From the NCBI GenBank assembly GCA_051294905.1, contig CM119372.1, positions 21,392,001 through 21,456,000 on the forward strand: a DNA stretch of 64,000 nucleotides. The letters are read 5' to 3'. Position 1 is the first letter of the stretch. Every line of letters begins with the position of its first letter. This document shows positions 5,093-41,019 of the stretch, in pieces. The notes beneath the pieces were generated by a model. It was given only the letters and a program-made list of their open reading frames with translations. It did not search any database and was not told the origin of the DNA. This DNA is from Botryllus schlosseri (taxonomy: Eukaryota). The position numbers and the translations under genes were made by a program.

Positions 5093-5118
5093 CTGACAGA
5101 TTGAAGACGAGTGTCAGG

Positions 5119-5420: not shown

Positions 5421-8400
5421 TAATTGATAGTATTGATTGGAGAATACGATTTTTTGTTGATAATTCTCGGATTATCCTTGATCCGGGGATTATCAACGAA
5501 AAACTCAAAAAGTTCCGCTTCTACAAGTCGGAATTGACTCAAATTTGTTTTGCATCGTCTTTGAAGACAGTGCAATTTTTTGGAATTAAAAACATAAAAC
5601 CTACTTTTGAAAATTGCTGAATAAAACCATAAGCTGGATAAACTGAGCTGGAACGGAAATTGATTTACTTTGAAACCTGCTCAATAATATATCAGGATTA
5701 CATAGCCTACGTCCCTCCCAAGCTTGTATGCGTAATGTAGATTTAAAATCAAGTCAACAATTTCATGGGGTTGACAGAAAAATTTGGGAATTTTTATTTT
5801 TTTATTTTTAATATTAATTTAAAAATTTCAATTCAAGATTGCACGGCCGTTACTGGTTGGAATTGAGTCAACTTTGGTGTGCATCGTTTTCTTAGACAAC
5901 CTGACGATTTAGTCATTAGGCGAGTCAGATTTGGAAAAAAAAAGTTTTTTTGAACAACTCTACTGAACAATGAACACTCGGGAACAAGGAAGAGATATTA
6001 TACCAGGTTAGTGATAGCACAGACGTCTGATTTTCAAATGCCACTGCTCATTATTACGTCAGAAGTATTTGCTTTGCTCGTCATTGCGTAAGAAGTATCC
6101 ACCCACCCCACACGCATTGAATATATATTTGATGTAGGCCTACATTGTAGTGTGATTGTACGAAGGCCTGCCATGCTGTACATCCGGTTATCAATACACT
6201 CCAGACGCCACTACCTGGCAGCAGGATAATATAATCACCGCACTCTGCCTAGTTTCAAATAGTAACTTATGTGTTTCTGTTTAGTTTTACTTAGTTAAAA
6301 TTAGTTTGACCGTTGCTGCTTGGCGAGCAGTAGGCCTATGTACGTACGGAGTACACCAGACAAGAATTTGAAATTTTGTATTCGTAAACGAAACATTACG
6401 ATTTCCACAACGAAGGATTATAAATCAACATCCGCTGATATATATCACAACCAAGCCGTTCTTTGCCGTTTCTCTTAACGGCAGCTTGCGGTACCTGTAT
6501 TAAGTGAAAAGCAGAATTTTATGTTCACTTTATCTTATCCTCATATGGCTCTACTTGAAACGGGGGCCAATCGCAGTTCGTCACTCGACATTTGGACCTT
6601 CTGCCAGACCCACACCATGTTAGCGAGGGTTGTAGCCAGAATCGGGACCAAAACAGAATTTCATTCCCCATTTCAAACGTTGGTCTTGGGCCCCCATATC
6701 GCTGTCGTTTTTCAAGTTGATGACTGAATTTCGTCAATAGTATTGATAATTGCATTATATTGCTATTCATGTTTGATCCTCTCCGAGCCCGGATGGTCAG
6801 ATTCACCAGTAGAGCTGGGGGCACGTAATTCATAATTAAAATATCTGGTATGTTAATTGTTATAATTACTTTATTGTATGTTGTTAATTCGTGACCACCA
6901 GTCTGTTATATAATCAAAAATATGGTAGTCGTCCAAACCAGAGATGGAAGTCGGGCCGGGCTTTTCGGGTTCGGGCCGGGTTCGGGCCGGGTTCGGGCCG
7001 GGTTCGGGCCCAAAGTTATAAAAATTATCGGGCTTGAATCGGGCCGAATAGTCACTACGAAAAGCATTGACTTCATATACAAATTTGATTTGCAATTTTG
7101 TTCGAAAGTGGCACAACTACATATAAGATACACCAATACCGTATCACGTAAGTATGGCAATATCTGTGAATAAACTTTATACGAAGTACGAACCCAGATA
7201 AACTTCATTATAAGACGGCCCGAAGACTATGATTGTAATGAAACAATGTCAGCTAAATAGTAAACAAGCGTCCCAAATACGCCAGACATTGATCGTTGTT
7301 CAGGCAACATTGTGACGAAAACATGAATTACGGATGGATGGATAACCATGCTGGAGCCTGGATTACTACCAATTTAGTTTTATTTTCGATGAGGCATGCT
7401 GAACTGAACAGCTAGAAGCAGGTGATGAGACGACGGCTTCCGTTGTGGCACAGCAGGATTGATCGATAGATGTGTTAAGGCGGTGTTAATATTTATTAAA
7501 AAAGCTTTTAGATGCGCCATAGTCAGGGGCGTAGCCAGCCGAGATAAAAAGGGGGTAGAACTGAATAAAGGGGGCAGAATGAGCCTCTATGCGTCATACC
7601 TTTAGCGATAGCGACTTCTGTATTCCGTACGCTTTTGAAAGCGTAACTAATTGGCGGATCTAATTACTGAAAGCGAGTTAGCAATCAACAGCTTGCACGG
7701 GATCGTGTTAGCAATCAACAACTTGCACGGGGATCATGTTACGATGCGCATGCGCTCATCCCGTGACAGTGCAGGAGATCTTATGGGTCAAGTGTAGAAT
7801 ACGGCCACCTCGAGAAAGTGATCCCCATGACCATCACCGATTAGTGTTGCACATGAACGTGTCGGAATTCATAGTGCTTCACGTAATTACCGACTGTGCT
7901 CCCCACAAAACCCTATAAATCAGGGGTTCTCAACCCGCGGGCCGCATGCGGCCCGCGACATCTTTCAATATAATCACAAAACCCTATAAATCGAGTCGGG
8001 GTTCCATATTATATCATATTATTGCCTCTTATAAACAACTCATCTTGAATTCACAGATACACATGCCGGTGATGAGCAAGATTACATTTTACATCGCTCG
8101 CTCGCATGCCAGATGAAGAACTTGTACAAGAAAACGAAGGAAAAGGGCAAGGAAGCGACTTACTCCGATCTCTTCACCACATTATGTATTGTGTATCGCA
8201 TTTTATCGAAAATTTAAAAAATACAACGCTCTTAGCGCCCACAACACTCATGTACAGACACTGACATAATAGGGTGTGATAATAGGTGCGGGGGAGATAA
8301 CGTAATGGTAACGATAAGCGCCCACTAATTTGGCGGACCCGGTTCGATTCTCGTCGGACGTTTATCCCCCGCTGTTGCCATTCTTGCAGTGACAAAAAAG

Positions 8401-17777: not shown

Positions 17778-19327
17778 CAGAGTTGGATCAAGTGTAATTT
17801 GTAATTGAGCTGAATGTAAAAAATTACATTTTTCAATGTAATTGTAATGTAATTGTAATTGAAGCATTTTTATTTTGTGTATTTGTAATTGTAATTGTAA
17901 TTTGACAAAAATTTTGCTCAATTACAATTTCAATTACATCAAATTGCTATTGAGGCCTGACAAGCACAACATAAAATAATTGACTTATAATGCATTCTCT
18001 TTAAATGTCGACAAGGAATTTGGTGGATCCATTCGCGAAAACCCTTGCTGCGCCCTTGCTGGCGAAGTTTTTTTTATTTTTACCGCTATGCTGGCCTCGG
18101 CTGCCATTGTATACAATTTTTTGATTACTACCCAACGGATGGATTCGCAACACGTGACTCGCGATTGAATACGCCGAGAAGCGAACTGCTGACCCGTCTA
18201 AAAGCAGCAGAATTGATAGTCCCATAGCTGGCGATCCAAGTGTCGAAATTTGATATATATGGTCCTAATCGAAAGCTAGTGTCGCACTGATTCCGCAATA
18301 AAAGTATATTTCCAGGCAATGGTACTATCCCAGAATAGTCGTGAAAGTCTGGGAATCGGAATTGTTCTGAACAATCGCTGGGCGTAATTGGCCATTGTTG
18401 TGGTCATGCTGCTGCGGCGGTCTCACTATTCAGAACAGTCGGCCTTAAACGGCTATTTTGGAGCAGTTACATTGCCCTGACGAGATATTGATTTGTATTT
18501 TCGGAATTAGTGCATCAATAGCTTACGATAAAGACCAGATGCATCAAATTTGGACGCTTGGATCGCCAGCACTAGGACTGCAAAGTTTGCTGCTTTTAGC
18601 CGGCTCTGCAGTACGTTTGTCGGTGCATTCATCCGTGACTCACATCTTGCGCATCTATCCGTAGGGTGGCTATCTACAATACGATTTCAGATCACGATGC
18701 TGCATCGTTATTTCGTCTGGCTAGAACTAACCAGACCACTGGATATTATATAACGTCTTATCTGACAAAGCACGCTTTTGTTTTTACTCCTCATCCTAAT
18801 TCCCACGTCCCTCGATTAAAATAATATTATTTCTTTATTTATATACTATATACGCAAATCCAACACGTGCATATATTATAATACTTTTTTCAACGACATG
18901 CTGCACCCTATCCTTAATCCTAACCCATAGGAAATTACGGAAATAACATTTTACATTTCCAATTACGTGAGACATAATTACCGAGCATACAAAACACGCT
19001 TATATTACGTCGCAATGACATCTTACTATGTACGCACATAAACGCATTTATTACTACACAATCTGAACTAGACTTGAATTGTTGTTAAATACGACGCTAC
19101 GGTTGTCAAGGAGCACGGTTGAATTTATGATTATTCAATGACATGTTCAACAGCAGCAATTGTAATTGTAATTGTAATGTAATTGAAGCATGCCAGGAGT
19201 AATTGTAATTGTAATTTGATATTTTTAGCATGGAGTAATTGTAATTGTAATGTAATTGAAACATTCATGAAAGTAATTGTAATTGTAATTGTAATTGAAC
19301 TAAGATAATGTAATTGATGCAACTCTG
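17778..19327. mobile_element. Non-autonomous DNA transposon with (TGTAAT)n subterminal arrays, inserted in a GACTCGAGT-family element
   Basis: TIRs are CAGAGTTG..ATCAA...TTGATGCAACTCTG, with a degenerate 8-bp TSD (GTGGTGAC / GTGCTGAT). It contains an inner inverted-repeat MITE at ~18130-18668 that is related to ~1697-1980. Confidence 0.65.
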
Positions 19328-20029
19328 GTGCTGATGGCTCAGTTTCGAGTTAAAGTCTCGTTAAACCCAGTTTTTATAACTATGTTTGGTGATATTGAGT
19401 GGTTCGCATTTATAATATACTAATTTTCCTCACTTTTAGCAGTTTCTGGTCGCATTTTCAAGTACCAGTACCAACAGACGAAATCCCACTAGTGTGGTTA
19501 CTTTACTATTCTTAGAAATTACAATGAAATGTCAGTCTTGGTCGTCTGAGTCTCTAGTCATATGACTTGGTTCGAGTCATGCGCAATGACTCGAGTCCAA
19601 GTCGAGTCAATACACAGATTGACTCGACTTGAGTCGAGTCATTTCCGTATTTTGAGAAAATGACTCGAGTCTGTCAAGTCGAGTCATCAGAAAATCGTGA
19701 CACGAGTCGAGTGAGTCATTACAACCCTGTAGCAGGGTTAGAAATCGGTCCGAATTTACTGAGGAAATCCCTCAAGTCAACAGTATTGAAACGGACTTGA
19801 CTTGAGCCAAGCACGGGCCGTGTTATTTTTGGCATTTCGACAACCAAATGCCAAAACTGCCAACGATAAGAAAAAAGCTAAAAACAAGGCTTTTTGAAAA
19901 TATCGATTTTTATAATCGTTTTAGACAGTGGCGGCTCGTGACAATATCGGGTAGTGGGCAATGTTCCCTCTAATTTTTCGCGAGAGTAGTAGTATAGATC
20001 GGTCAACCGGTGGCAGGGGTTCTTATGGG

Positions 20030-20226
20030 CGGGGTGGTGAGCGGCTGGGAAACCGGGGGTGGTGAGCGGCTCTTATTTCTTATGGCGGGGGTGGTGAGCG
20101 GCTATTGCGTCTTATGGCGGGGGGTGGTGAGCGGCTCTTATTTCTTATGGTGGGGGTCGTGAGCGGCTAGAAAACCGGGGGTGGTGAGCGGCTTTTATGT
20201 CTTATGGCGGGGGTCGTGAGCGGCTA
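20030..20226 (+). repeat. Subterminal tandem repeats (7x GGGGT[G/C]GTGAGCGGCT, 25-33 bp period); mirrored at 33588-33784
   Basis: Counted directly. They are followed by dispersed ACCGGTAACCCTTTTCGGTATA-like motifs to ~20850. Confidence 0.9.
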
Positions 20227-23200
20227 TTGTGTCTTGTGGTCGAACGGTAACCCTTTTCAGTATAGGGATAGCTCGCACGCGGCTTCGTTGTTAGCATGTC
20301 GTACTTCGTGTTGAATATGTATCAAGTAAATAGTCATGTGATTGGTCCTTAGGTAACGTGTATATTCCAAATTACGGCGAGTACGACATTGATATATCGT
20401 TATTCTTATGGATGCGGCGATGATTCGTACTTTCAGGCATCTCGCGACCGGTAACCCTTTTCGGTATATGAATCGCTCAACCGGTGCTAGTATAGCCATC
20501 TCTCGACCGGTAACCCTTTTCGGTATATGAATCGCTCAACCGGTGTCGCGGTGGTAATTCATACTTTCGGGTATATGCATCTCTCGACCGGTGTTGAATA
20601 TGTATCAAGTAAATAGTCACGTGAATGAATCTTTGTTAATGTGTATATCGTGAAAACTCGCGGTCGTGACTCGCCTTTTTTGCTATAGGTGATCGCCGTT
20701 GTTTCTTATGGGTGCGCTCGCATGTCGCACTTTCAGGTATAGGCATCTCTCGCACATCGCAGACTCGCCATGTGTTCTTATGGGTGCCGCCGTGAATCGC
20801 CCTTTCGGTATAGACATCTCTCGCACGTCGTACTTTCGGGTATAGGCATCACTAAACAGGAAATTCACTAATCCGCAGTGCATTGTGCGATTTTGAAAAC
20901 CAGACGTTGGCGGTTGTATTTTGGACCTGTGTGACCCACTAAATACGTCCGTTTTGGAAATTCGGAGCGCGCACTATCGTATCGATTATTCCACTAATCC
21001 AGTCGGTGCTATTACGTTCGGCAGTATTCAGTATTCAGCAGCGTCACGAAAAGCGAGCAACAAATAACCGCGCTCGTAAATTGACACTTCAAAAAGTGTA
21101 AAATAGATTGCAAATCCCGCGATCACTAACAAGATAATGTCTCGAACATAACCATTTTTAGTGACTTGGTGTTAAAGACATACCGATCGCTCACAAGGTA
21201 ATATTTCCGCAATAAGTTTGTCACAGAGCCGGCGCAGACGGTGATTCGTAAACCAACAATTTGACACTTTCTGGTGGTCGCTATATGTTTTGACACTTCG
21301 AACAGTGGCTGACTTTAGTTGCGCGATAAGAATTATGAGAATATTCAATCAATGTATCAATTTGCCAACTCGAAATGAAACTTACTACACAGCTCAAGTT
21401 GATTCGTATCTGAATGTGTTAATTCGGTACAATTCTAATTATTTCGAGAAATCTTTTCGTGATCTTTTGATTCGACCGTAACTCGAATATTACTGACACC
21501 GACTTTCAGCCACATTGAATTATTCGCACACCAGCGCCGCTGTTTTCACAACTATAACTCTACAAGAATCAAGAATCACAAGTATGTGCATTATACAGTT
21601 ATTGTCTTTATCAACACGAAATCAAACTCTTAACAAAAACACGCATCTTATCACTCGTCAACTCTATCATGAAAATCCTCGAGTCCTTATCATCAAAAAT
21701 GTTATAGCGCGGCGTCGGAATCCATTCGTGGGATGTACTAAAGGTAAATCCAAATAATCCAGAATGAAATATTTGGACTTTGACATTGTGTGAATTGAAA
21801 TATGTTTGACAAACATGACTACCAACTTTCACCCAGTCACATTTCGAGATTATACGCACATTGATTTGAAACAAGTAATGAAACATTACAACTCTATTCG
21901 CGACCTGTCTTTACGTTTGTCAAAGAGAGTTTCAGAAATATTATCACTATGACATCTCAACATTTTAACATCTTGCCACCAACAAAAGAGTAAAATACAA
22001 AAAACCTTGTCAAGTCAATCCGTTTGTAACTCACCGAACCAAAGCAAAAAGTGTCCACACGAAAAGTAGACAAGACTACGCAAGTAATCACTACAACCCA
22101 CAAACATATCAAGTTCGGTTTTAGGTATATACCACCAACTCGTCTTTTTTGTTCAACTGTAAAAGTCGTTACTATACCGCAAGACTAAGAAATTACTATG
22201 CGGTATATTTTGTAAGACAAAAGTAATTAGTTCTCGGTGTCGGCGACTTGAGGTTAACATAATATATTTGAGTATACGACATTTGAAAGTATGACCATCG
22301 TAGTTTCTTACAATCGAACGCAGGTGTTATATCGAAAATTATCGTGATGTAAACATAAGGATTGTCACATCGATTTAACATATGAGATTTTGTAATGGTC
22401 TATCATGACTTGATTATTAAATTATTCGCGTTAATTAGACCCGGCGTTGTGGTAAAGGTTATTAGGACAGCAACAAACTTTTCAGTACCGTTGTTCTTAA
22501 CATATTGAGTTGTAAAACTATGCGTGTCTGAAATGTTCTTGAATGGAAAATTATTCCACCTTGGTACATATCACCCTGCGTATCGCAGATATCACTAACC
22601 AAGACTAAAGATGAAACAACAATTTCCTTTGTTAAACAATAACCGGTACAATACTTTATCATCGTAATCAGCAGTGAGAATTGAAACACTTTCGCACATT
22701 ATCCGGCGTCAAGATATCACACTAGGTGAATTGACATATCGCCGCTTGAATAATACCTAATCCGTTCGAACCATTTCACATACTTTGATCATTACAAAAG
22801 TAAATTGTGATATGTTTGTTAGATGCATCCAATTCAGTTAGAAGTGTCTAGTGCCCAACACTCGTAATATCAAAAAAGTACTTGCTACACTGTTATTTGC
22901 TAAACGTGTTTTGCATTGTTGTTCATTTGTAGTATTGATTGAAATTGTTCTTGAACCCTCAAATAATAATTCCCGACATGAAACCAAGCCGCTGAAAGTC
23001 GTTACCATCACGAAGATACAATGTGCACGATGTTTGTCAAATGTGTCCTACCTGGCCAACAGAAAACAATTTTCACTCACTCGAAATGAAACCAATGTGA
23101 TGGTCTCCATTCGATATTTTGTTTGTGTCAAATACTTTGCATTGAACACATTTGCGTGGTTGAGCTTTACATCATCAAGCTGTTATTTGTAAATCAAGAT

Positions 23201-25129
23201 TTCGGTAAACTTGTAAATGTATCGTTTAACTAACCGACATTTAGTGATTGGGAAACATACCAGACGATACACATCCATCTCCGAAATACTGCATTGATCT
23301 TAATTTCCATCATCGTGATAATCGAAGTACATTTCTTCCGAATTCGTAACAACCGACTATGACATGATAAATTTTTGACAAGTTATGCTTAAAAGATTGG
23401 TTGCATATCGCGAAAAAATAATATACCACTCATATTGATACTGTTACTCCATTGATCGATATTTTCAAACGAGTAAAATTTATTACTTGAGTTTCCCCGC
23501 TTAATGTAAATGAAAACTCAGCCGTCTTTTAACATCACAAAGACATTGATAAAAAGTAGGCAATCAAACACACTCTACGTGGTTAACATTCTCGTCGATT
23601 CTATTGTGATTAATGTATACTTCATGTGATCTGGATTCATTTCGATATGGTTAAACATTCAACCTCGACGGATACGAATTGTCACACACTCAAGTAATAT
23701 CATACCAAATAGTTATTTACAACAACCGAGACACAGAAAATTTGTTTTGGCCATTTCGATTTTATTACTGGAGATACTCATCACTTTGCTTAATACAATC
23801 TAGATTTAAACTCCATCGAACCTTTGGTGCCTATCGTTTTGTTGGATACGAATTATGCTAGTCTAAGAGTACACAATTTTCACTATCTTGGGTTATGAAC
23901 TCAGTGTGTTAGCGAGCATTCAATATTTTGTAGTATCAACTAGTTACTTCGTAATATACGAATGATCATCCTCACAACTCTTACAAAAGTACGAAGGATA
24001 TTTACATCACACAAAGTAATCGACTTTACTCAATATCCTCACACTACGAAACTGAATGGTTTGTTTGACTCTACAAACTGTTCTGATGTCACAAGAACTT
24101 TTTCATACGCATGGTTACGTATCTAAATATTCAAATAATCCAACACACAACTATAGTACTTACAGAAATATCATAGTTCTTGTAACAAAGTTGTATAAGT
24201 ATAATGTTTATCGTAAGTCCTACATAGCCATGATATCCGTCCGAGTTTGACTTTTAGAAAACATTATACCGACATCGCGACATCTTTCAAAATTAAAACC
24301 ACAGTGACTGCTTCAGAGACCTACCAATGATATCACAGTAATACAGTTACTTCCACAAAAGAGTATGTATTCGACTTACTTACCACAAATCTAACGCACA
24401 AAACAATTTACTTTGCTAACGAGAAGCGCCGAGCCTCACATCAAAACAACTAGAGGGTGGAACTATATTAAAAAACGTCGCTAACCTTTGTGCACCAGCT
24501 GTAAATCACACAAGCAACATGTTTCAAGATTCTGGTTATTGAAAAACGTTAAAGTGTTTCTCCTGCGCCAAGTCGTTATGTTGACAAAAGCATATATTGT
24601 AATATCATGATCGATTTGCATTCGTTGGTCCCAAACTGTCACTACTCCAAATAATTATTTTTCACCCAAACACAAAAGCATACTTGTCACCATTCGTTTT
24701 CATCAAGCACGAGTTCAAGAAACTTACTTACTACGACATGAATTTTTATTTTTATGTTGTGTAAATAGGTAATAATTAATTCAAGTAACACTATATCAAC
24801 ATCATCGAGTTGTGCTAATAGATTTACATGTGGTCTTGTGGTTTTCGTCGGGACATACAGCACGAACTAACTGTAGACTACTCTCTGTTGTACAGCTACT
24901 CGGTAATCGAAATGCATTAACATGTAAACAACGATCTTGTATCGTCACACCAAAAATATGTTCACTGTCGCGATACTCCGCACAAGACGTGCATAGCCTT
25001 TTCACACTCGTAATAGTATACCAACGTCAAGCGATAACGTTTAACAAGACCAACGACACTGAACCCACGACGTTTACCTATGTAAAATTACCACTTTCAC
25101 TTGCCAGTCCATCGTTTACCTGACTAAAC

Positions 25130-25765
25130 ATATTATTTTCCTTTGGAGATCTGACGTTTACCCAGAGTAAGAAACCATTTTCACTTGTAAATATTTTTTT
25201 TCCTCGGCTAACAAACCTTTTTTCACTTGGAAATATATTTTTTCTCTGGGTAACAAACCTTTTTCACTTGGAAATATATTTTTTCTCTGGTCAACAAACC
25301 TTTTTCACTTGGAAATATATTTTTTCTCTGGTTAACAAACCTTTTTCACTTGGAAATATATTTTTTCTCTGGGTAACAAACCTTTTTCACTTGGAAATAT
25401 ATTTTTTCCCCGGATAACAAACCTTTTTCCCTGAGCAACAAACCATTTTCACTTGGTGGTCCGTCGTTTACCCGAGTAAAAATATCATTTGCCTTTGGAG
25501 ATCCGGCGTTTACCCAGTGTAACAATACATTTTCACTTGGAAAAATACTTTTACCTAGAGTAACTAATCATTTTCTTCTGGGTAACAAACCCTTTTCGTC
25601 TGGAAACTATCATTTAACTGAGTACCAACACCGTTTTCACTTGGAAATACATTTTCTCCCGGGTAACAAACCCTTTTCGTCTGGAAACTATCATTTAACT
25701 GAGTACCAACACCGTTTTCACTTGGAAATACATTTTTTCCCTGGGTAACAATACCATTTTCGTTT
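25130..25765 (+). repeat. ~40-bp minisatellite plus an 81-bp higher-order duplication in the palindrome arm; mirrored at ~28049-28684
   Basis: TTTTCACTTGGAAATATATTTTTTCTCTGGGTAACAAACC recurs. The 81-bp unit starts at 25580 and 25661. Confidence 0.9.
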
Positions 25766-28700
25766 TGAAAACTGACAACCACACCGGCCAATTTGATATT
25801 TTTGTATATTGTTACAACGGACAGCGACAAAATATACACCAACAACGACTCCGATACATTTGTGTAATCGCATACTCACTTGCTCTGGCGCATCCCATCA
25901 AAATCGACGGTTAGCCACACACACACACACACACAAACACAATAACAATGCGCTATTTCGATATGACTGCGATGTCCGGGTTCGTGCTTTAGATTTTCCA
26001 GAACCAATCCGTCTAAAGTTGTAATCCCCCACCTTTGTTAACTGGTTGATACACGGATAACAATCTTCGGAAAATGTAGGAACGCATACTACCCATCGTG
26101 CTAACGATTCCGGGTTACTTGTGATTAATTTCCTTGCTCACCCTATACAGATTATACGTACAGCGATATGTAGCGGTAATCGGTTTGGTCAATACACATT
26201 GCCCCATTCAGTATGGAATTACAAACCCAATACAGGTCACTTCATAACCGGATCCGGATATTCAATGCAAAGCGATAAAGCAGAACCAATGACCAAATGT
26301 AATTAAACATGTAGATTTACAACCCTTGATTTTTTTTTCGTGAAAAATGACAATACATATCGAATATATATTTTACGATGGTTCAACCCTACCAAGTATT
26401 CACGTAAATGTGGTTTATGACATTACATACAATGTATCAGTGTATCAATGTTGGGTGTTTATGCACACATCGGTATGACCCATAGACAACATCATCATAC
26501 CCTCCAGGACTTCGTTATTGCATCGTGAGGTCAATAAAATCAATCGGTGGTATAGACGACAGAAGGCTTGGAGATCCAATGTAAAATTGAGACAAACAAA
26601 CGGATATATTTGTCCATCTTGGTTATTCACTCAACTACCATTGGTGCTCTCGATACAGCGAACGGTACAGTATGCAACGCATATCATTAGAGTGATATAT
26701 CCACAGGTAAATATGGGACCTGCCCACAATAATTGTATCGAGATTTAACCCAGATTACTATCCGTTCACTGATTCACTCGATGGTTTTAGCAACTTGTAA
26801 CAACACAAGATAGATACGACTGGAATTACTAATATTCATAATGTTTATGATAAGTGTCGTTACCGATCGTTCACTAAGTCGATATGAATATTCGAAAAAT
26901 CGGATATCACTACTCTCAACACCAGTGATTCGGTTTAAGTTTAAAATCGATTTGATAATGTAATCCAAGGTGTGTTTCTGTGGGATCTGCTAACCTTTAC
27001 GAGAGACTGCTGTCTCTTCGATACAGGAAACAATTATTATCAACCACACCTTGCGTGCATCGATTTGTCGGCGTCGTACAATTATTGTGGGCAGGCCCCA
27101 TATTTACCTGTGGATATATCACTCTAATGATATGCATTGCATACTGTACCGTTCGCTGTATCGAGAGCACCAATGGTAGTTGAGTGAATAACCAAGATGG
27201 ACAAATATATCCGTTTGTTTGTCTCAATTTTACATTGGATCTCCAAGCCTTCTGTCGTCTATACCACCGATTGATTTTATTGACCTCACGATGCAATAAC
27301 GAAGTCCTGGAGGGTATGATGATGTTGTCTATGGGTCATACCGATGTGTGCATAAACACTTAACATTGATACACTGATACATTGTATGTAATGTCATAAA
27401 CCACATTTACGTGAATACTTGGTAGGGTTGAACCATCGTAAAATATATATTCGATATGTATTGTCATTTTTCACGAAAAAAAAATCAAGGGTTGTAAATC
27501 TACATGTTTAATTACATTTGGTCATTGGTTCTGCTTTATCGCTTTGCATTGAATATCCGGATCCGGTTATGAAGTGACCTGTATTGGGTTTGTAATTCCA
27601 TACTGAATGGGGCAATGTGTATTGACCAAACCGATTACCGCTACATATCGCTGTACGTATAATCTGTATAGGGTGAGCAAGGAAATTAATCACAAGTAAC
27701 CCGGAATCGTTAGCACGATGGGTAGTATGCGTTCCTACATTTTCCGAAGATTGTTATCCGTGTATCAACCAGTTAACAAAGGTGGGGGATTACAACTTTA
27801 GACGGATTGGTTCTGGAAAATCTAAAGCACGAACCCGGACATCGCAGTCATATCGAAATAGCGCATTGTTATTGTGTTTGTGTGTGTGTGTGTGTGTGGC
27901 TAACCGTCGATTTTGATGGGATGCGCCAGAGCAAGTGAGTATGCGATTACACAAATGTATCGGAGTCGTTGTTGGTGTATATTTTGTCGCTGTCCGTTGT
28001 AACAATATACAAAAATATCAAATTGGCCGGTGTGGTTGTCAGTTTTCAAAACGAAAATGGTATTGTTACCCAGGGAAAAAATGTATTTCCAAGTGAAAAC
28101 GGTGTTGGTACTCAGTTAAATGATAGTTTCCAGACGAAAAGGGTTTGTTACCCGGGAGAAAATGTATTTCCAAGTGAAAACGGTGTTGGTACTCAGTTAA
28201 ATGATAGTTTCCAGACGAAAAGGGTTTGTTACCCAGAAGAAAATGATTAGTTACTCTAGGTAAAAGTATTTTTCCAAGTGAAAATGTATTGTTACACTGG
28301 GTAAACGCCGGATCTCCAAAGGCAAATGATATTTTTACTCGGGTAAACGACGGACCACCAAGTGAAAATGGTTTGTTGCTCAGGGAAAAAGGTTTGTTAT
28401 CCGGGGAAAAAATATATTTCCAAGTGAAAAAGGTTTGTTACCCAGAGAAAAAATATATTTCCAAGTGAAAAAGGTTTGTTAACCAGAGAAAAAATATATT
28501 TCCAAGTGAAAAAGGTTTGTTGACCAGAGAAAAAATATATTTCCAAGTGAAAAAGGTTTGTTACCCAGAGAAAAAATATATTTCCAAGTGAAAAAAGGTT
28601 TGTTAGCCGAGGAAAAAAAATATTTACAAGTGAAAATGGTTTCTTACTCTGGGTAAACGTCAGATCTCCAAAGGAAAATAATATGTTTAGTCAGGTAAAC

Positions 28701-31700
28701 GATGGACTGGCAAGTGAAAGTGGTAATTTTACATAGGTAAACGTCGTGGGTTCAGTGTCGTTGGTCTTGTTAAACGTTATCGCTTGACGTTGGTATACTA
28801 TTACGAGTGTGAAAAGGCTATGCACGTCTTGTGCGGAGTATCGCGACAGTGAACATATTTTTGGTGTGACGATACAAGATCGTTGTTTACATGTTAATGC
28901 ATTTCGATTACCGAGTAGCTGTACAACAGAGAGTAGTCTACAGTTAGTTCGTGCTGTATGTCCCGACGAAAACCACAAGACCACATGTAAATCTATTAGC
29001 ACAACTCGATGATGTTGATATAGTGTTACTTGAATTAATTATTACCTATTTACACAACATAAAAATAAAAATTCATGTCGTAGTAAGTAAGTTTCTTGAA
29101 CTCGTGCTTGATGAAAACGAATGGTGACAAGTATGCTTTTGTGTTTGGGTGAAAAATAATTATTTGGAGTAGTGACAGTTTGGGACCAACGAATGCAAAT
29201 CGATCATGATATTACAATATATGCTTTTGTCAACATAACGACTTGGCGCAGGAGAAACACTTTAACGTTTTTCAATAACCAGAATCTTGAAACATGTTGC
29301 TTGTGTGATTTACAGCTGGTGCACAAAGGTTAGCGACGTTTTTTAATATAGTTCCACCCTCTAGTTGTTTTGATGTGAGGCTCGGCGCTTCTCGTTAGCA
29401 AAGTAAATTGTTTTGTGCGTTAGATTTGTGGTAAGTAAGTCGAATACATACTCTTTTGTGGAAGTAACTGTATTACTGTGATATCATTGGTAGGTCTCTG
29501 AAGCAGTCACTGTGGTTTTAATTTTGAAAGATGTCGCGATGTCGGTATAATGTTTTCTAAAAGTCAAACTCGGACGGATATCATGGCTATGTAGGACTTA
29601 CGATAAACATTATACTTATACAACTTTGTTACAAGAACTATGATATTTCTGTAAGTACTATAGTTGTGTGTTGGATTATTTGAATATTTAGATACGTAAC
29701 CATGCGTATGAAAAAGTTCTTGTGACATCAGAACAGTTTGTAGAGTCAAACAAACCATTCAGTTTCGTAGTGTGAGGATATTGAGTAAAGTCGATTACTT
29801 TGTGTGATGTAAATATCCTTCGTACTTTTGTAAGAGTTGTGAGGATGATCATTCGTATATTACGAAGTAACTAGTTGATACTACAAAATATTGAATGCTC
29901 GCTAACACACTGAGTTCATAACCCAAGATAGTGAAAATTGTGTACTCTTAGACTAGCATAATTCGTATCCAACAAAACGATAGGCACCAAAGGTTCGATG
30001 GAGTTTAAATCTAGATTGTATTAAGCAAAGTGATGAGTATCTCCAGTAATAAAATCGAAATGGCCAAAACAAATTTTCTGTGTCTCGGTTGTTGTAAATA
30101 ACTATTTGGTATGATATTACTTGAGTGTGTGACAATTCGTATCCGTCGAGGTTGAATGTTTAACCATATCGAAATGAATCCAGATCACATGAAGTATACA
30201 TTAATCACAATAGAATCGACGAGAATGTTAACCACGTAGAGTGTGTTTGATTGCCTACTTTTTATCAATGTCTTTGTGATGTTAAAAGACGGCTGAGTTT
30301 TCATTTACATTAAGCGGGGAAACTCAAGTAATAAATTTTACTCGTTTGAAAATATCGATCAATGGAGTAACAGTATCAATATGAGTGGTATATTATTTTT
30401 TCGCGATATGCAACCAATCTTTTAAGCATAACTTGTCAAAAATTTATCATGTCATAGTCGGTTGTTACGAATTCGGAAGAAATGTACTTCGATTATCACG
30501 ATGATGGAAATTAAGATCAATGCAGTATTTCGGAGATGGATGTGTATCGTCTGGTATGTTTCCCAATCACTAAATGTCGGTTAGTTAAACGATACATTTA
30601 CAAGTTTACCGAAATCTTGATTTACAAATAACAGCTTGATGATGTAAAGCTCAACCACGCAAATGTGTTCAATGCAAAGTATTTGACACAAACAAAATAT
30701 CGAATGGAGACCATCACATTGGTTTCATTTCGAGTGAGTGAAAATTGTTTTCTGTTGGCCAGGTAGGACACATTTGACAAACATCGTGCACATTGTATCT
30801 TCGTGATGGTAACGACTTTCAGCGGCTTGGTTTCATGTCGGGAATTATTATTTGAGGGTTCAAGAACAATTTCAATCAATACTACAAATGAACAACAATG
30901 CAAAACACGTTTAGCAAATAACAGTGTAGCAAGTACTTTTTTGATATTACGAGTGTTGGGCACTAGACACTTCTAACTGAATTGGATGCATCTAACAAAC
31001 ATATCACAATTTACTTTTGTAATGATCAAAGTATGTGAAATGGTTCGAACGGATTAGGTATTATTCAAGCGGCGATATGTCAATTCACCTAGTGTGATAT
31101 CTTGACGCCGGATAATGTGCGAAAGTGTTTCAATTCTCACTGCTGATTACGATGATAAAGTATTGTACCGGTTATTGTTTAACAAAGGAAATTGTTGTTT
31201 CATCTTTAGTCTTGGTTAGTGATATCTGCGATACGCAGGGTGATATGTACCAAGGTGGAATAATTTTCCATTCAAGAACATTTCAGACACGCATAGTTTT
31301 ACAACTCAATATGTTAAGAACAACGGTACTGAAAAGTTTGTTGCTGTCCTAATAACCTTTACCACAACGCCGGGTCTAATTAACGCGAATAATTTAATAA
31401 TCAAGTCATGATAGACCATTACAAAATCTCATATGTTAAATCGATGTGACAATCCTTATGTTTACATCACGATAATTTTCGATATAACACCTGCGTTCGA
31501 TTGTAAGAAACTACGATGGTCATACTTTCAAATGTCGTATACTCAAATATATTATGTTAACCTCAAGTCGCCGACACCGAGAACTAATTACTTTTGTCTT
31601 ACAAAATATACCGCATAGTAATTTCTTAGTCTTGCGGTATAGTAACGACTTTTACAGTTGAACAAAAAAGACGAGTTGGTGGTATATACCTAAAACCGAA

Positions 31701-33928
31701 CTTGATATGTTTGTGGGTTGTAGTGATTACTTGCGTAGTCTTGTCTACTTTTCGTGTGGACACTTTTTGCTTTGGTTCGGTGAGTTACAAACGGATTGAC
31801 TTGACAAGGTTTTTTGTATTTTACTCTTTTGTTGGTGGCAAGATGTTAAAATGTTGAGATGTCATAGTGATAATATTTCTGAAACTCTCTTTGACAAACG
31901 TAAAGACAGGTCGCGAATAGAGTTGTAATGTTTCATTACTTGTTTCAAATCAATGTGCGTATAATCTCGAAATGTGACTGGGTGAAAGTTGGTAGTCATG
32001 TTTGTCAAACATATTTCAATTCACACAATGTCAAAGTCCAAATATTTCATTCTGGATTATTTGGATTTACCTTTAGTACATCCCACGAATGGATTCCGAC
32101 GCCGCGCTATAACATTTTTGATGATAAGGACTCGAGGATTTTCATGATAGAGTTGACGAGTGATAAGATGCGTGTTTTTGTTAAGAGTTTGATTTCGTGT
32201 TGATAAAGACAATAACTGTATAATGCACATACTTGTGATTCTTGATTCTTGTAGAGTTATAGTTGTGAAAACAGCGGCGCTGGTGTGCGAATAATTCAAT
32301 GTGGCTGAAAGTCGGTGTCAGTAATATTCGAGTTACGGTCGAATCAAAAGATCACGAAAAGATTTCTCGAAATAATTAGAATTGTACCGAATTAACACAT
32401 TCAGATACGAATCAACTTGAGCTGTGTAGTAAGTTTCATTTCGAGTTGGCAAATTGATACATTGATTGAATATTCTCATAATTCTTATCGCGCAACTAAA
32501 GTCAGCCACTGTTCGAAGTGTCAAAACATATAGCGACCACCAGAAAGTGTCAAATTGTTGGTTTACGAATCACCGTCTGCGCCGGCTCTGTGACAAACTT
32601 ATTGCGGAAATATTACCTTGTGAGCGATCGGTATGTCTTTAACACCAAGTCACTAAAAATGGTTATGTTCGAGACATTATCTTGTTAGTGATCGCGGGAT
32701 TTGCAATCTATTTTACACTTTTTGAAGTGTCAATTTACGAGCGCGGTTATTTGTTGCTCGCTTTTCGTGACGCTGCTGAATACTGAATACTGCCGAACGT
32801 AATAGCACCGACTGGATTAGTGGAATAATCGATACGATAGTGCGCGCTCCGAATTTCCAAAACGGACGTATTTAGTGGGTCACACAGGTCCAAAATACAA
32901 CCGCCAACGTCTGGTTTTCAAAATCGCACAATGCACTGCGGATTAGTGAATTTCCTGTTTAGTGATGCCTATACCCGAAAGTACGACGTGCGAGAGATGT
33001 CTATACCGAAAGGGCGATTCACGGCGGCACCCATAAGAACACATGGCGAGTCTGCGATGTGCGAGAGATGCCTATACCTGAAAGTGCGACATGCGAGCGC
33101 ACCCATAAGAAACAACGGCGATCACCTATAGCAAAAAAGGCGAGTCACGACCGCGAGTTTTCACGATATACACATTAACAAAGATTCATTCACGTGACTA
33201 TTTACTTGATACATATTCAACACCGGTCGAGAGATGCATATACCCGAAAGTATGAATTACCACCGCGACACCGGTTGAGCGATTCATATACCGAAAAGGG
33301 TTACCGGTCGAGAGATGGCTATACTAGCACCGGTTGAGCGATTCATATACCGAAAAGGGTTACCGGTCGCGAGATGCCTGAAAGTACGAATCATCGCCGC
33401 ATCCATAAGAATAACGATATATCAATGTCGTACTCGCCGTAATTTGGAATATACACGTTACCTAAGGACCAATCACATGACTATTTACTTGATACATATT
33501 CAACACGAAGTACGACATGCTAACAACGAAGCCGCGTGCGAGCTATCCCTATACTGAAAAGGGTTACCGTTCGACCACAAGACACAATAGCCGCTCACGA
33601 CCCCCGCCATAAGACATAAAAGCCGCTCACCACCCCCGGTTTTCTAGCCGCTCACGACCCCCACCATAAGAAATAAGAGCCGCTCACCACCCCCCGCCAT
33701 AAGACGCAATAGCCGCTCACCACCCCCGCCATAAGAAATAAGAGCCGCTCACCACCCCCGGTTTCCCAGCCGCTCACCACCCCGCCCATAAGAACCCCTG
33801 CCACCGGTTGACCGATCTATATAACTACTCGCGAGTCTGCGCAAACATGCCAACTCACTGCGCAGGCCCTTGGACAACAGTGCGCAACCAGGCCCCCCAT
33901 ATTGTGATAAGCAAAACCCCAGACCCCC

Positions 33929-34188
33929 TGTTGTATGTTTGGTGTCTAATTGGTGCCGACTTCAGTTTTGTTGTGATTACCTTTCTGTGTTAAAGATCAT
34001 TCGTCGTAATGTACTGGCGTGGACTGTAATGATTGCAGACTGTCTGCCTGTTTCGCGTACTGAGAACCGTTCTTCATTTATGTTGCTGTTGTCTTAACTG
34101 TTGGTATTGCGAGTATCGTAGTCAAGGTATTAGTTCATTTAAGCCGAAGTAATAAACTGCTTACGAATATTGTTTCGTGCTCACAACA
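33929..34188 (+). repeat. 5' LTR of Gypsy element 1
   Basis: TGTTGTATG...CTCACAACA, with AATAAA at 34151-34156. Direct repeat of 37847-38106. Confidence 0.95.
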
Positions 34189-34218
34189 ATTAAATTAACT
34201 AAAGTTCTTGACGATACA

Positions 34219-37200
34219 ATGTCTGAAGCACTGAAGCCGTTGAAACCGAAGGTATTGGAAATTGAACCCAATAGCCCGGCGTCAGAGAAAGAGTGGAAGC
34301 ATTGGCGAAGAATTTTCGAGAATTATCTTGCGGCCTTCGAGACAGGAAGTGCCAGAATAGAAAAACTCAAGATTCTTACAAACTTCTTATCGTATGTCCT
34401 TTTCGAGTATATCGATGAAGCTGAGACATATGAAACCGCAATTGCAACGTTAGACAACCTATTTGTCAAAGCACCTAACGAGGTGTTTGCACGTCATGTG
34501 CTGGCGACAACGAAACAAAAGCACGGACAAAGCTTGGATGAATATTTGCAAGAACTACGCAGATTGAGCAAGGATTGTAACTTTCTTGCAGTCTCCAAAA
34601 CTGAACACCGAGACGGATTTATTCGAGACTCCTTCATCAACGGCATTCTTTCGCATGCCATACGGCAGCGGTTGTTGGAGGAAACCGAATTGACAATTGA
34701 CAGTGCCTTTAGGAAGGCCCGAACCTTGGACATTGCACAAACGAATTCGTCCTCGTACATGTCTTCTGGCGGTGCCGAGATTCCAATAGCAACCGTCCAA
34801 TCTGAAGCAGCATCCGACAAAGAACGTGAAAACGCTGCAGCAGCTGTGCATCGTGGCGAGTGGAAATGTTATTTTTGTGGTGACAAAATTCAACATGCCC
34901 GTAAAAATTGTCCAGCACGCTCATCCACCTGTTACAAATGTGGGATGACGGGGCACTACTCGAAAGTTTGCAAAAGTGTAGCGGATGCATCCACTCGAAA
35001 AACACCATCCACGAAACATAGTTCGTCCTCGTCCTGCGCTATACAAGAAGCACCAAGATGTTTGCGTTACGCAATCATAGATACATTCCTAAAAGACGAG
35101 CGAATGTCAACGTTGGTGGATCCTGGAAGTGGCTTAAGCTACATCAATCCAAGGACAGTTGAAGCGATGAAATTGAAGGTGTTGCCCTATACAGATTGCG
35201 TAACGATGGCGGCAAAGTCTCTGAAAGAATCCATCTCTGGTCAATGCATCGTAGAGTTGGTGTTGAACGGGAAGGTTTACAGAAATGTCACGCTAGGCGT
35301 CATGAAACATCTCTGTTGCGATATAATACTTGGTCAAGACTTTCAGAAACGACATAAACGCGTGGTGTTCACGTATAATGGCAAAGACCCGGAACTCGTT
35401 ATATCATCTCAGGACCGTAGAACCTGTGCTGTTCTAGCATCTAACACGAAATGTCCACAACTCTTCAAGTCCGTTACGTCAGATTTCAAGCCAGTGTGCG
35501 TGCCATCAAGGCGTTATAGCGCTGCAGATACAGCCTTCATCGAATCTGAAGTTGACAAGCTGTCGAAAGACGGAATTATAAGACCAAGTAGTTCACCATG
35601 GCGCGCTCAGCCATTGGTCGTAACCAATCAAGAATCCGGTAAAAAGCGAATGTGCATAGATTATTCGCAAACTGTGAACCGCTTTACGGTACTCGATGCC
35701 TACCCTTTGCCTCGCATAGAATACATCGTACAAAAACTGGCAAAATACAAAGTATTTTCAACTTTTGATTTGAAGAGCGCGTATCACCAATTGGAGCTAC
35801 GAGAGTCCGATAAAGCGCCTACCGCTTTTGAAGCCGTCGGTCGATTGTGGGAGTTCAATCGGTTGCCGTTCGGGGTCACGAACGGTGTACCCGCATTTCA
35901 ACGAACTATGGACGCGATTGTCGATTCGGACAAACTGGCAGATACGTTTCCATACCTTGATAATGTCACTGTCGGAGGCCAGTCACAGTCGGAACACGAT
36001 AAAAGTGTTGAGCGCTTGCTGAATGCGTTGAGTGCAAGAAACATGATTCTCAACCACAATAAGACCATTTCATCGGTCGCAGAGGTGGATATATTAGGAT
36101 ACCGTGTTGGTCGTGGTGTCATAAAACCTGATCCGGAGCGATTGAAACCATTGCGTGAATTGCCTCCACCTACAAACAAGAAAGCTCTGAAGAGGGCGTT
36201 GGGATTATTTGCCTATTACGCAAAGTGGATACCGGCGTTCTCAGACAAAATTGCAAGTTTGATCAACTGTGTCGATTTTCCAATCAACGCGAAGTGCTTG
36301 AATGATTTCAATGCATTGAAAAAGGGCGTGGAGGACGCCGCTTTACAAGCGATCGATGACGACGAGCCCTTTGTGGTGGAGTGTAATGCCTCCGATGTCG
36401 CAGTGTCGGCGACGTTGAATCAGGGTGGCCGACCTATTGCTTTCATGTCCCGCACGCTCAACAATAGCGAAAAGCACTACCCTGCCGTCGAGAAAGAGGC
36501 GACTGCTATTATCGAAGCAGTGAGGAAATGGCAGCACTTTTTGGCAGGACGAAGATTTACATTGATCACGGATCAGGAAGCTGTTTCGTTCATGTTCGAT
36601 ATGCGAAAGCGGTCGAAAATCAAGAACAATAAGATTCAGTGTTGGCGCCTAGAGTTGGCGCAGTTCACGTACGATATTCGATATCGGCCAGGAGAATTGA
36701 ATTGTGCACCCGACGCCCTGACCCGAGCCCATTGTTCGTCCATTTCGACGTGTAATCTCGAAGAACTGCATCGAGAGCTATGTCACCCGGGAGTAACCCG
36801 GCTTCTTCATGTTGTTCGTTCGCAGAACTTGCCCTACTCAACTTCCGATGTGAAAAGAGTATGCTCGACATGTCAAGTGTGTGCTGAAATCAAGCCTCGG
36901 TTTTATCGCCGAGAACAGGGAGTCCTGATCAAGTCTACAAAACCGTTCGAGCGTTCAAACATGGATTTCAAAGGCCCCTTGCCATCGAACACTGGTAACA
37001 GATATATACTAGTAGTGGTTGACGAGTTTTCACGCTTTCCATTTTGCTTCGCTTGTCCAAATATGTGGTCATCCACTGTTATCAAATGTCTAGATGAGCT
37101 ATTTGCTCTTTGTGGTACGCCTAATTACATTCATTCAGATCGTGGTAGTTCGTTCATGTCTCGCGAAATCAAAGATTACCTGCTCTGTAAGGGCGTTGCA

Positions 37201-37846: not shown

Positions 37847-38106
37847 TGTTGTATGTTTGGTGTCTAATTGGTACCGACTTCAGTTTTGTTGTGATTACCT
37901 TTCTGTGTTAAAGATCATTCGTCATAATGTACTGGCGTGGACTGTAATGATTGCAGACTGTCTGCCTGTTTCGCGTACTGAGAACCGTTCTTCATTTATG
38001 TTGCTGTTGTCTTAACTGTTGGTATTGCGAGTATCGTAGTCAAGGTATTAGTTCATTTAAGCCGAAGTAATAAACTGCTTACGAATATTGTTTCGTGCTC
38101 ACAACA
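37847..38106 (+). repeat. 3' LTR of Gypsy element 1
   Basis: Direct repeat of 33929-34188, preceded by a polypurine tract. Confidence 0.95.
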
Positions 38107-39109: not shown

Positions 39110-41019
39110 CGACTTCGAAGTGGGAACAATGTACCATTTTCAGTATTTTCCTCCGGTATTGCAGAAGTGTCCTCTTTTCAGATTTCCAAAATGTGGTAAT
39201 CCTAGATATTACCTTATCGACAGAAAACTCCCGTTCAAACGAATTGAATAATATCAAATTTTTAAGCTGATGTAATTCAACGCCCTACAGTGCACAGTTG
39301 CCAGTTGATCAACGTTTGCAAGGGGATGGATTTTTCAACTATGTTGGTGCTTGTACTTGCATATTCTGCATATTATCCTATCTCACCATACGTGATCAGA
39401 TTTGCTTGATTGAAGTGATGACTTCGAAAATTCACGGCATGTAATTGTACGGTAAATCTTACGCAATGTTCATGCCACACGAAGAACACTATTCGTTAGT
39501 TTCTCGCAGATTAACTTCACGCTAGCCCATTGTTATTTAGTTAAACCATGTTATTTCGCCATTCCCAGAAAAGATTGTGCTACTGAAATGATATCAGTAT
39601 GGCTCACGCGTACGAGACCATACTAAAAGAAAAATCTCTATCGTGGGGCGCACGTCATTGCAAATTATCATTTCTTCACAGAGCGCAATATTTACCTTTA
39701 CTGGCCGCACTTGTACCTCGGTTTCAGACTTCACCGATAACACTATTGGCCCCTGGCAATGTTCCCTCTGATTTTTCACGACTCACGAGTCTGCGCGCTT
39801 GCACGGTCACTTGGAGAACAACAAGAAAAACAAGAAAAAAAAGTCATCCCTACGGATTTTTTGTGCGCAGCCAAGATTTTCTGTGCGCAGAGACCGGTTC
39901 AGCACTGCGCATTTGCGCACGTGCGCAGCTTAGAGGGAACATTGGTAGTGGGGCAAGGGCTGTAAGCCACTTTTTATTAAGATGACGTCACAATGGCATT
40001 TTCCAACGTAAACAAGTAACTTAATGATGGTACGGTAACATGAATTGCCGGCAACAGTGATTTTAACGTATGTGCCACGAGAGGTCCGCCGGTGAGCTGT
40101 GACTTGAAGTGTGGTAACTGCGTAAACGTCGTACGGAACAAAGATTCAACACGGTTCATGTTCGCACTAGACCTGGAAATGACTATAACTCGAGAGATAG
40201 CGTAAGCCTAACTGGAAAGGTCAACGAGTTCGGACAGATACGCAATTGTTATCTCATAGATTGGGCCTGTCATATTGAATCCAAAACATCATTCTGAAGA
40301 ACTAAGAATAGCAGCCTCAGAAATTCGGTCTTGGTACAGCATAGGAGATTTTGACCTTGAAACTGGAGACTGTAACATGACACATACGGCTTTATTACTG
40401 TCTATAGGTCTGCTACGAAATCGCCTTTGGAAAATATACTACCGAATAAATACGTGGACGAAAGCTTTAAACTTAGTACACTGTTACATGACATCACCGA
40501 GAAGTGGTCCCATGGCCCTTTTCGGTATGGTACACTGTCAAAATTAATGCGAACAGACCAACACCGAATTTTGCGTAAAATTTACTGAGGAATAGGCTGA
40601 TAAAGTGATCAGCTGTTAGCTGCCATCGAAAACGAAACAGCTATCGCGCTTGACAGCAGGGGGTTGTGAGCAAATGGCTTGAAGGCCACAATTTCACGGT
40701 GAAATTGACATTGGAGAATATAATATCAAAGTAAATATTTGAATGCAAACTGAGAATGATATCATCATCTCAATTAACGTTACCGAAGATACACCGGCTT
40801 TTGCGTGAAATCGGCAATGCGTTGTATGCTAAAGTGTCAGATCGAAGCACATCTCTACCATACTCGACCTTGATAACGAAATTACTGCCCTGATCACTGA
40901 GTATCAACCTTGAGACTTGGCACAGCGTTCGATACTAAAACCAAGACATACCATGCAAAAGTTTATGACGGATCTAGGTAAGGAGCATCGTTAAAATCAA
41001 TAGATACCAATACCGGCTT

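Follow-up and report, generated by a model that had tools for sequence, protein, structure and literature searches.

How does a genome come to hold a mobile element that is almost entirely its own mirror image? The question is raised by a 13.8-kb element (positions 19985-33829) in a stretch of 64,000 nucleotides from the Botryllus schlosseri assembly (C2:21392001-21456000, the whole of which we call the window; the assembly comprises 495.5 Mb in 219 contigs). A reading made from the letters of this stretch (the sequence-only reading) had described the element as a fully palindromic relative of the Polinton/Maverick transposons, and had proposed that a template switch during protein-primed replication folded it back and that the product was then integrated. 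Our analysis gives a different answer for the locus and a similar one for its ancestry: the window element is very probably a copy that transposed recently and that comes from a gene-less subfamily of a large, old family of non-autonomous palindromes derived from Polinton/Maverick elements; the copy in the window did not fold back by itself.

The palindrome and its copies at other loci

An inverted-repeat search of positions 18000-36000 gives one dominant pair (19981-26737 and 27077-33833; 6,757 nt each, 339 nt between them), listed as 100% complementary; the outer 4 nt of each arm belong to flanking DNA that is partly self-complementary, and the element itself consists of two inverted arms of 6,753 bp around a 339-bp spacer. 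The arm-to-arm alignment covers 6,753 nt with six mismatches and no gaps. Two of the mismatches are at the extreme terminus (arm positions 7 and 8) and four lie at most 285 nt from the spacer (6469, 6470, 6694 and 6734); from arm position 9 to 6468 there is none. A perfect 6-bp target-site duplication, CGCGAG, abuts the element on both sides: at the left end CGCGAG is followed by AGTAGTAGTATAGATCGG (with flank, TTTTTCGCGAG joined to AGTAGTAGTATAGATCGGTCAACCGG), and at the right end CCGATCTATATAACTACT is followed by CGCGAG (with flank, CCGGTTGACCGATCTATATAACTACT joined to CGCGAGTCTGCGC). The termini are AGT repeats, AGTAGTAGTATAG on the left and AGTAGTTATATAG on the right, that is, 5'-AG with a short terminal tandem repeat. 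The palindrome, its arm and spacer lengths, its termini and its duplication were all part of the sequence-only reading, and the reading of the ends and the alignment of the arms bear them out.

The same reading had seen no open reading frame of the polymerase (pPolB) or integrase type, and we agree. The longest stop-to-stop frame in arm and spacer has 123 aa and lies inside a tandem repeat, a Pfam scan of the 23 frames of at least 70 aa in the element gives nothing above threshold, and a tblastx comparison of the arm with three autonomous copies (described below) finds similarity only at the ends and in one block of 118 bp. By frame list, Pfam and tblastx, then, the element has no pPolB or rve integrase frame, and it cannot be autonomous. 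The sole Pfam hit of the arm, GnsAB_toxin (E 0.008, 16.5 bits with a cut-off of 27), was taken as chance.

The terminal 916 bp of the window element recur on many contigs as oppositely oriented pairs 8.9-21.7 kb apart, nine of which were retrieved and compared. Two of the loci, C10:6415753-6429593 and C6:31099100-31112939, hold the window palindrome itself, with arms of 6,753-6,754 bp and 99.8% identity over arm and spacer; further copies on C5 and C11 have a spacer 100% identical to that of the window and likewise share its interior. Five loci including the window thus have the same axis, a 100% identical 339-bp spacer and arms that are 99.8% alike, and the spacer is found at 97-99% identity at 35 or more further loci, that is, at no fewer than 40 overall. 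Palindromes of other subfamilies occupy C2:21164103-21177098, C7:1305780-1319893 and C15:12185081-12198828 (arms of 6,018-6,608 bp, spacers of 908-960 bp, arm identity at least 99.9%); two more were reached through the arm interior, at C11:15836000-15849000 (arms at least 5,987 bp, 100% identical) and C5:16088000-16101000 (arms 5,724 bp), and a shorter one of 9.46 kb, with a 75-bp spacer and the duplication ATGATT, lies at C13:15013665-15023125. Counted together, the palindromes outside the window subfamily, complete or partial, come to seven, with arms that measure 4.7-6.6 kb and show 99.8-100% identity. Between subfamilies, the 339-bp spacers and those of 908-976 bp share only blocks of 33-52 nt.

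Other palindromic copies with 6-bp duplications of their own, for which the sequence-only reading had proposed a search, are therefore present (C10, C6 and the other subfamilies). In all 12 elements whose ends were read (window, C10, C6, C2b, C7, C15, three coding elements, C16, I_C5 and S_C13) the termini begin AGTAGT and the 6-bp duplication is perfect, and every duplication is different. Within a single copy the ends may carry unequal numbers of AGT units or disagree over the first ~10 nt (C6 has three units at one end and two at the other), and such differences may be a trace of slide-back initiation. The element at C16:20941722-20963468 (L037-L039) has the same termini and the duplication CTTGTA but is 21.7 kb long with inverted ends of 2.7 kb; internally it has another inverted pair, of 1,078 bp, and three copies of an 872-bp unit, and it is a rearranged or compound member.

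Since the axis is the same and the spacer 100% identical at five loci, and since diverged subfamilies are built alike, the palindrome is inherited and transposes as such. The siblings might be thought segmental duplications of the window locus, but their different flanks and duplications argue against this. These flanks and duplications also speak against the idea that the window locus arose directly from a single template switch in protein-primed replication, as a fresh snap-back genome that integrated once. Such an event would explain the palindromic form with its Polinton ends and 6-bp duplication, the near identity of the arms and the fact that in relatives both arms come from one Polinton end (see below); however, we consider it very unlikely given one axis and one spacer at five loci with 99.8% arms, a spacer present at some 40 loci or more, the same architecture in diverged subfamilies and an arm interior that is not current Polinton sequence.

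Long-read libraries are known to yield long perfect palindromes where adapters are missed, and the locus could in principle stem from a chimeric read that folded back or from a repeat that was collapsed or joined wrongly. The chance of such an artefact is negligible: the boundaries of the element fall at transposon termini flanked by a 6-bp duplication, the same architecture recurs at many loci with other flanks, and the spacer and arm junctions occur in contigs from other studies' runs, under other organism labels. In one independent public run (X2), a 399-nt contig equals positions 26708-27106 and so reaches from the spacer 30 nt into each arm (one letter below the 31-letter bridging rule); in a second (X13), a 458-nt contig spans the right junction of spacer and arm. 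Because C10 and C6 have the palindrome between different flanks and different duplications, and because its junctions are found in contigs of independent runs, the palindrome at the window locus is real and not an assembly artefact. For the axis region (26300-27500), at least half of the sampled words are found in contigs from runs under four coded organism labels and from two seawater metagenome runs, so the palindrome family is not confined to one species label; no RNA run was listed among those with contigs of the region, and a single-cell RNA run gave only one read for it.

The size of the family was estimated with a terminal motif, AGTAGT-N(3-8)-GATCGSTC, which occurs 1,304 + 1,167 times in the genome versus 6 + 12 times for the reversed control, a count in which some rows are entered twice at AGTAGTAGT and one unrelated motif class is included. 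The first 100 rows cover contig C1 to 19 Mb; pairing plus with minus occurrences by eye gave 31 pairs, 21 of them of 12.9-15.0 kb. We sampled 20 of these 21, omitting one inside a triple nest at 16.77-16.81 Mb as well as the 10 pairs outside the size range, and compared 300 nt at 4-kb depth from both sides of each. Fourteen of the 20 pairs are mirror-symmetric at this depth; their alignments total 4,115 nt, of which 4,114 are identical. The left-hand pieces of 19 are homologous to the interior of the palindromes that were retrieved in full, and among the best-matching elements listed for each left-hand piece (five at most) there is no autonomous element; the larger pairs on C1, of 18.3 and 20.9 kb, contain polymerase matches. 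By extrapolation the palindromic members probably number several hundred, and as a rough extrapolation the family makes up ~1-2% of the genome.

Two details of the census may be added. Among the first 100 hits, seven have the sequence AGTAGTTTTGGTCGATCGCTC; these are unpaired, lie without exception on the minus strand and are probably a different repeat with a terminus-like stretch. At C1:16768420-16810257 three terminus pairs of 41.8, 28.7 and 14.7 kb are nested; the family seems to insert into itself often.

Polinton ends and the descent of the arms

Three retrieved pairs are elements of 15.4-16.5 kb whose inverted ends measure only ~800 bp. One of these coding elements (L029+L030, 16.2 kb, with the same ends) has an rve integrase with a chromodomain (E 2.7e-16), a 1,241-aa frame with DNA_pol_B_2 (E 2.2e-7) and an ATPase frame. 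The ATPase frame matches general P-loop NTPase families best: AAA_14 (E 4e-5, 24.1 bits) does not reach its curated cut-off and RNA_helicase (E 1.5e-4, 22.6 bits) just over its cut-off of 21.5 bits, while the packaging-type Pox_A32 (E 0.0023, 17.9 bits) stays below its cut-off of 22.8. A 432-aa frame of the same element has language-model neighbors with a double-jelly-roll domain (score 0.98), which may serve as a lead only. The first 459 bp of the window element are 97.6-97.8% identical to both ends of this coding element; for the C7 palindrome, the identity to these ends is 99.6%. An autonomous partner with the same termini that encodes pPolB and an rve integrase, whose existence the sequence-only reading had anticipated, is therefore resident in the genome. 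A genome search with pPolB gave 37 full-length matches (437 candidates) at 92-100% identity, most of them without stops, so helpers are plentiful.

The excerpts of two earlier papers describe Polintons as elements of 15-20 kb with a 6-bp duplication, inverted ends of 100-1,000 bp, a terminal tandem repeat of 1-3 bp, pPolB and a retroviral-type integrase (PMC4196379, PMC4028283). As far as these excerpts go, the window element has in common with them the 6-bp duplication, the 5'-AG termini, the terminal AGT repeat, the subterminal repeats and co-resident coding partners; it departs from the described length, short inverted ends and ~10 genes in having arms of 6.75 kb, a center of 339 bp and no gene. 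Held against an autonomous Polinton, that is, it has the duplication and the termini but neither pPolB nor rve, nor a coding body of 15-20 kb between short terminal inverted repeats (TIRs); held against a non-autonomous derivative, it shares its ends with resident pPolB/integrase elements and exists in several copies, each with its own duplication. The AGT termini, the 6-bp duplication and the first 459 bp, common to elements that encode pPolB, rve and an ATPase, support its assignment to the Polinton/Maverick type by sequence, in agreement with what had been claimed for it.

The long, internally repetitive inverted arms that make up nearly the whole element also invite comparison with foldback transposons of other superfamilies (FB, P/Galileo or MULE-like), whose ends would then merely resemble those of Polintons. 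That the element belongs among them is extremely improbable: over the terminal 459 bp, identity to elements encoding pPolB and rve reaches 97-99.6% at their ends, the C15 subfamily is colinear with a Polinton end for 1,540 bp that include a Polinton gene, the duplications are of 6 bp in 12 of 12 elements, no transposase-like frame is found by Pfam in the 23 frames of the element or by tblastx, and the partner encodes an rve integrase and pPolB, not a transposase of the FB, P or MULE type.

The palindromes of other subfamilies indicate where the arms came from. Over positions 1-1540, the C15 arm is colinear with the autonomous element's right end (depth 9-1,559) at 95.1% identity, whereas only positions 1-782 match the left end of that element, and this match is the TIR itself. 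In the window, C2b and C7, a block of 118 bp (arm positions 864/865-982) is 80-82% identical to depth 2,212-2,329 of the right end only, and both arms of the window element retain this block. The two halves of the palindrome thus appear to come from the same parental end, as a snap-back genome would have it (by colinearity in C15, by the 118-bp block in the window); these comparisons support the view that the arms of relatives both go back to one particular end of a Polinton, which is what a copy-back origin would lead one to expect. We propose that, long ago, a fold-back or copy-back event on one Polinton end would have produced two copies of that end, head to head around a short spacer, and that this product has been inherited since. 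The AGT terminal repeats would be the expected origin for protein-primed initiation, and the polymerase and rve integrase of the partners would have replicated and integrated the window element in trans; such mobilization of the palindromic elements by partner enzymes is what we infer from the ends that they share. The template switch of the sequence-only reading thus survives for the ancestor of the family, whose arms are one-end-derived (C15), and fails for this locus, the axis of which is common to at least four others.

Several points weigh against the window element being a transposed member of an old, large family built from a Polinton end. Colinearity with one end is seen for one subfamily (C15) in comparison with one autonomous lineage. 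Outside the 459 bp and the 118-bp block, the window arm has no similarity to the three autonomous copies, and its descent from a Polinton end rests on its relatives; a comparison with Polinton proteins, which the sequence-only reading had suggested, went against it here, since by tblastx with these copies the arm interior is not recognizable as Polinton coding sequence. No transposition or replication was observed, mobilization in trans being read from the shared ends. Six of the 20 sampled pairs are not symmetric at the tested offset (one aligns over 75 nt only, five do not align), and the census consists of one degenerate motif and a sample from one contig. Finally, the check in independent runs used contigs, not long reads across the locus.

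A gene carried by the relatives adds to the connection between palindromes and coding Polintons. At the right end of the autonomous element, the outermost gene is an outward-reading frame of 211 aa (L030:6462-7097, plus strand; L035:1214-1825, minus strand), and it is intact in both arms of the C15 palindrome (203 aa, ~96% identical). In the genome, 150 listed matches (348 candidates) have 93-100% identity, all but one of them without a stop; of the 150, 90 fall into 45 minus/plus pairs with distances of 9.3-16.7 kb, which represent the two arms of palindromes, and several of these pairs have a window-type spacer at their center. The window subfamily has lost this gene. As to its product, two database searches gave one relative only (97% identical), Pfam gave only a hint of an OB fold (E 0.1), a sequence search of the PDB gave no match and an alignment-free fold prediction was poor (mean pLDDT 37); its language-model neighbors are RPA-like OB-fold clusters (0.93-0.95), so that a role in binding single-stranded DNA is offered as a lead and not as a finding.

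How the two arms stay alike

Differences between copies are mirrored within them. Less than 5.9 kb into the arm, all eight differences between the window and C10 (arm positions 18, 21-24, 135, 167 and 460) are present in both arms, and so are nine of nine differences between the window and C6. At position 460, the variant is a T in both C10 arms and is also present at the corresponding left-arm position of C5 (where only the left is covered), so the mirroring preceded the dispersal of those copies. The four near-axis differences of the window element are not mirrored and resemble a mix of the C6 and C10 states. Among eight palindromes, 17 of 18 non-terminal differences between arms fall in the axis-proximal 30% of the arm, although some are shared by descent and the number of independent events is correspondingly lower. 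In two elements, I_C5 (nine differences, positions 34-184) and the old left end at the C5 locus, the arms also differ in the outer ~185 nt. The arms would accordingly be kept identical by the copying of one from the other, and two settings for this copying can be considered.

A locus on C5 preserves one such event. The host element there is a palindrome of 9.65 kb (24843939 to ~24865270, axis near 24860440; L086-L096, L107, L108) into which a second element has inserted (24845465-24857149); numbered by the window arm, the host sequence breaks off at 1472 on the left and starts again at 1467 on the right, and the 6 bp that overlap are the duplication ATCTTT. The inner element begins with 326 bp of an old left end, which matches the other ends of the element at 314 of 326 positions, with all 12 differences in the first 165 nt. 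The next segment repeats exactly, in inverted orientation, the 2,080 bp of host DNA that flank the insertion on its right (all 300 nt sampled at a distance of 1 kb match, as do all 280 nt that lead up to the boundary at 2 kb), and after it comes a complete mirror arm that starts with a terminus. The inverted copy of host flank inside the insertion implies that the left half was re-synthesized after integration: the right arm served as the template, synthesis ran through the terminus into the flank, and the product was rejoined at depth 326. The arrangement shows repair in the chromosome with an arm as template, of the fold-back, break-induced type, and it leaves snap-back during replication as a possible second route.

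Host recombination in the chromosome, by arm-to-arm gene conversion or by fold-back, break-induced repair and independently of Polinton replication, is accordingly one explanation for the identity of the arms, and we find the case for it evenly poised. The rebuilt arm at C5:24845465-24857149 was made only after insertion. Differences between arms concentrate at both edges of homology, as if conversion needed homology on both sides, and all 14 symmetric copies in the sample have essentially identical arms while subfamilies are 5-25% apart. However, C5 is one event at one locus, the window lineage is mirrored to 18 nt from the end with no outer edge effect, and all copies could simply be young.

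The arms might instead be reset at each round of replication, a nascent or displaced strand snapping back near the axis and being copied outward to the terminus so that the near-axis stretch escapes; we entertain this tentatively, as the less probable of the two. It would account for mirrored differences that reach to 18 nt from the terminus and are common to copies at different loci, and for the axis-proximal position of 17 of the 18 non-terminal differences. The single-stranded 'racket' intermediate proposed for Polintons in the excerpt of one paper (PMC4196379) would in the case of the window element be a full hairpin. The differences in the outer ~185 nt of two elements speak against a full reset, which would erase them; moreover, the sole copying event that was caught was chromosomal, and no extrachromosomal form was observed. 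Chromosomal and replication-linked copying are not mutually exclusive.

Known systems, possible meaning and further features

Snap-back structures of adenovirus, and the inverted-repeat DNA of incomplete particles, were reportedly described by Daniell in 1976. In the parts of the literature available to us, a snap-back defective genome is a symmetric palindrome made from one genome end that carries the replication origin twice (PMC13506859), and adenoviruses combine protein-primed replication with a packaging signal near one end (PMC12090768). Like these genomes, the window element is a palindrome from one genome end with a double origin; they are transient and belong to virus stocks, whereas the window family is heritable, integrated and diversified, with probably several hundred copies. 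The Drosophila FB elements and Galileo resemble the window element in their very long, internally repetitive inverted arms that are wholly or nearly non-coding, but they belong to other superfamilies (Galileo to the P element), and the window arms consist of unique sequence plus short arrays and have Polinton ends. The target-site duplications of FB and Galileo are of lengths other than 6 bp.

Palindromes can form by fold-back priming at inverted repeats, and those of primate sex chromosomes have arms kept identical by gene conversion; the latter are immobile and have neither termini nor target duplications. The window family is like such large genomic palindromes in that its arms are at least 99.9% identical despite the divergence between copies, in the differences at the edges and, at one locus, in an arm-templated overshoot into the flank. 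In a literature search that left subscription papers and Repbase reports outside, we found no description of palindromic or foldback non-autonomous Polintons. The window family works in the manner of non-autonomous Polintons and is shaped like a foldback transposon, and its ancestry is the one that a snap-back defective genome would be expected to have; what is added here is the link to coding Polintons, the origin from one end, the mirrored substitutions, the rebuilding in place and the paired OB-fold-like gene.

To our knowledge, Polintons are thought to be both transposons and viruses, and their replication has never been observed. A more far-reaching reading, which we consider doubtful, is that the palindromic family is a satellite, that is, a defective-interfering-like parasite of an active endogenous Polinton virus, with a helper that replicates, packages and integrates it and with arms regenerated by snap-back in each cycle. 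If so, a one-ended replicon of ~7 kb would gain two origins by being doubled head to head. Twenty-one of the 24 palindromic elements that were measured or sampled are 12.6-14.7 kb long (two are 9.5 kb, and one, rearranged, is 11.7 kb), and the coding elements are 15.4-21 kb; the palindrome length would thus be 85-90% of the helper genome and would permit replication, packaging and integration by the helper. Most members would also aid their own strand-displacement replication through two copies of one gene, derived from the end of the helper, for an OB-fold single-strand-binding protein, and the window copy would be a further-reduced, gene-less parasite of the satellite system.

Beyond the satellite reading, several hundred probable copies of 13-14 kb, built from one end and with arms in lock-step, would be a natural record of fold-back copying and terminal initiation, and the palindromic family would be the DNA-transposon counterpart of snap-back defective genomes. 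Long perfect palindromes are usually unstable; here an animal genome tolerates very many of them, which makes the family a good system in which to study palindrome maintenance.

The features of the window element are collected in Table 1.

Table 1. Coordinates of the palindromic element and its parts (positions in the window).
Feature	Position	Strand	Mirror position
Left copy of the target-site duplication, CGCGAG	19979..19984	.	
Left arm, 6,753 bp, without recognizable coding content	19985..26737	+	
Terminal 459 bp common to both autonomous Polinton ends, 97-98% identity; starts with AGTAGTAGTATAG	19985..20443	+	
Subterminal tandem repeats, period 32/57 bp, core GGGGGTGGTGAGCGGCT	20053..20239	+	33575-33794
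Right-end-specific block of 118 bp, ~81% identity, arm positions 865-982	20849..20966	+	32848-32965
Internal arrays: 41 bp x 6.4 copies, 42 bp, 81 bp x 2.5 copies	25167..25770	+	28044-28646
Axis-proximal stretch with the 4 non-terminal arm-to-arm differences	26453..26718	+	
Spacer (axis), 339 bp, non-palindromic	26738..27076	+	
Right arm, inverted copy of the left arm	27077..33829	-	
Right copy of the target-site duplication, CGCGAG	33830..33835	.	

The surroundings of the insertion add three minor observations. A joined 36-nt string representing the empty site has no match with up to three mismatches within the window, and the left flank matches positions 39755-39781 over 27 nt at 92.6%, where the sequence continues into ACGAGTCTGCGC; this is a weak check of the host end that removal of the element would restore. 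Just upstream of the element, positions 18118-18679 hold an inverted repeat with arms of 181 nt that are 76% complementary and 200 nt apart. In the right flank, 260 bp at 33929-34188 recur 3.9 kb downstream, at 37847-38106, in direct orientation and at 99.2% identity.

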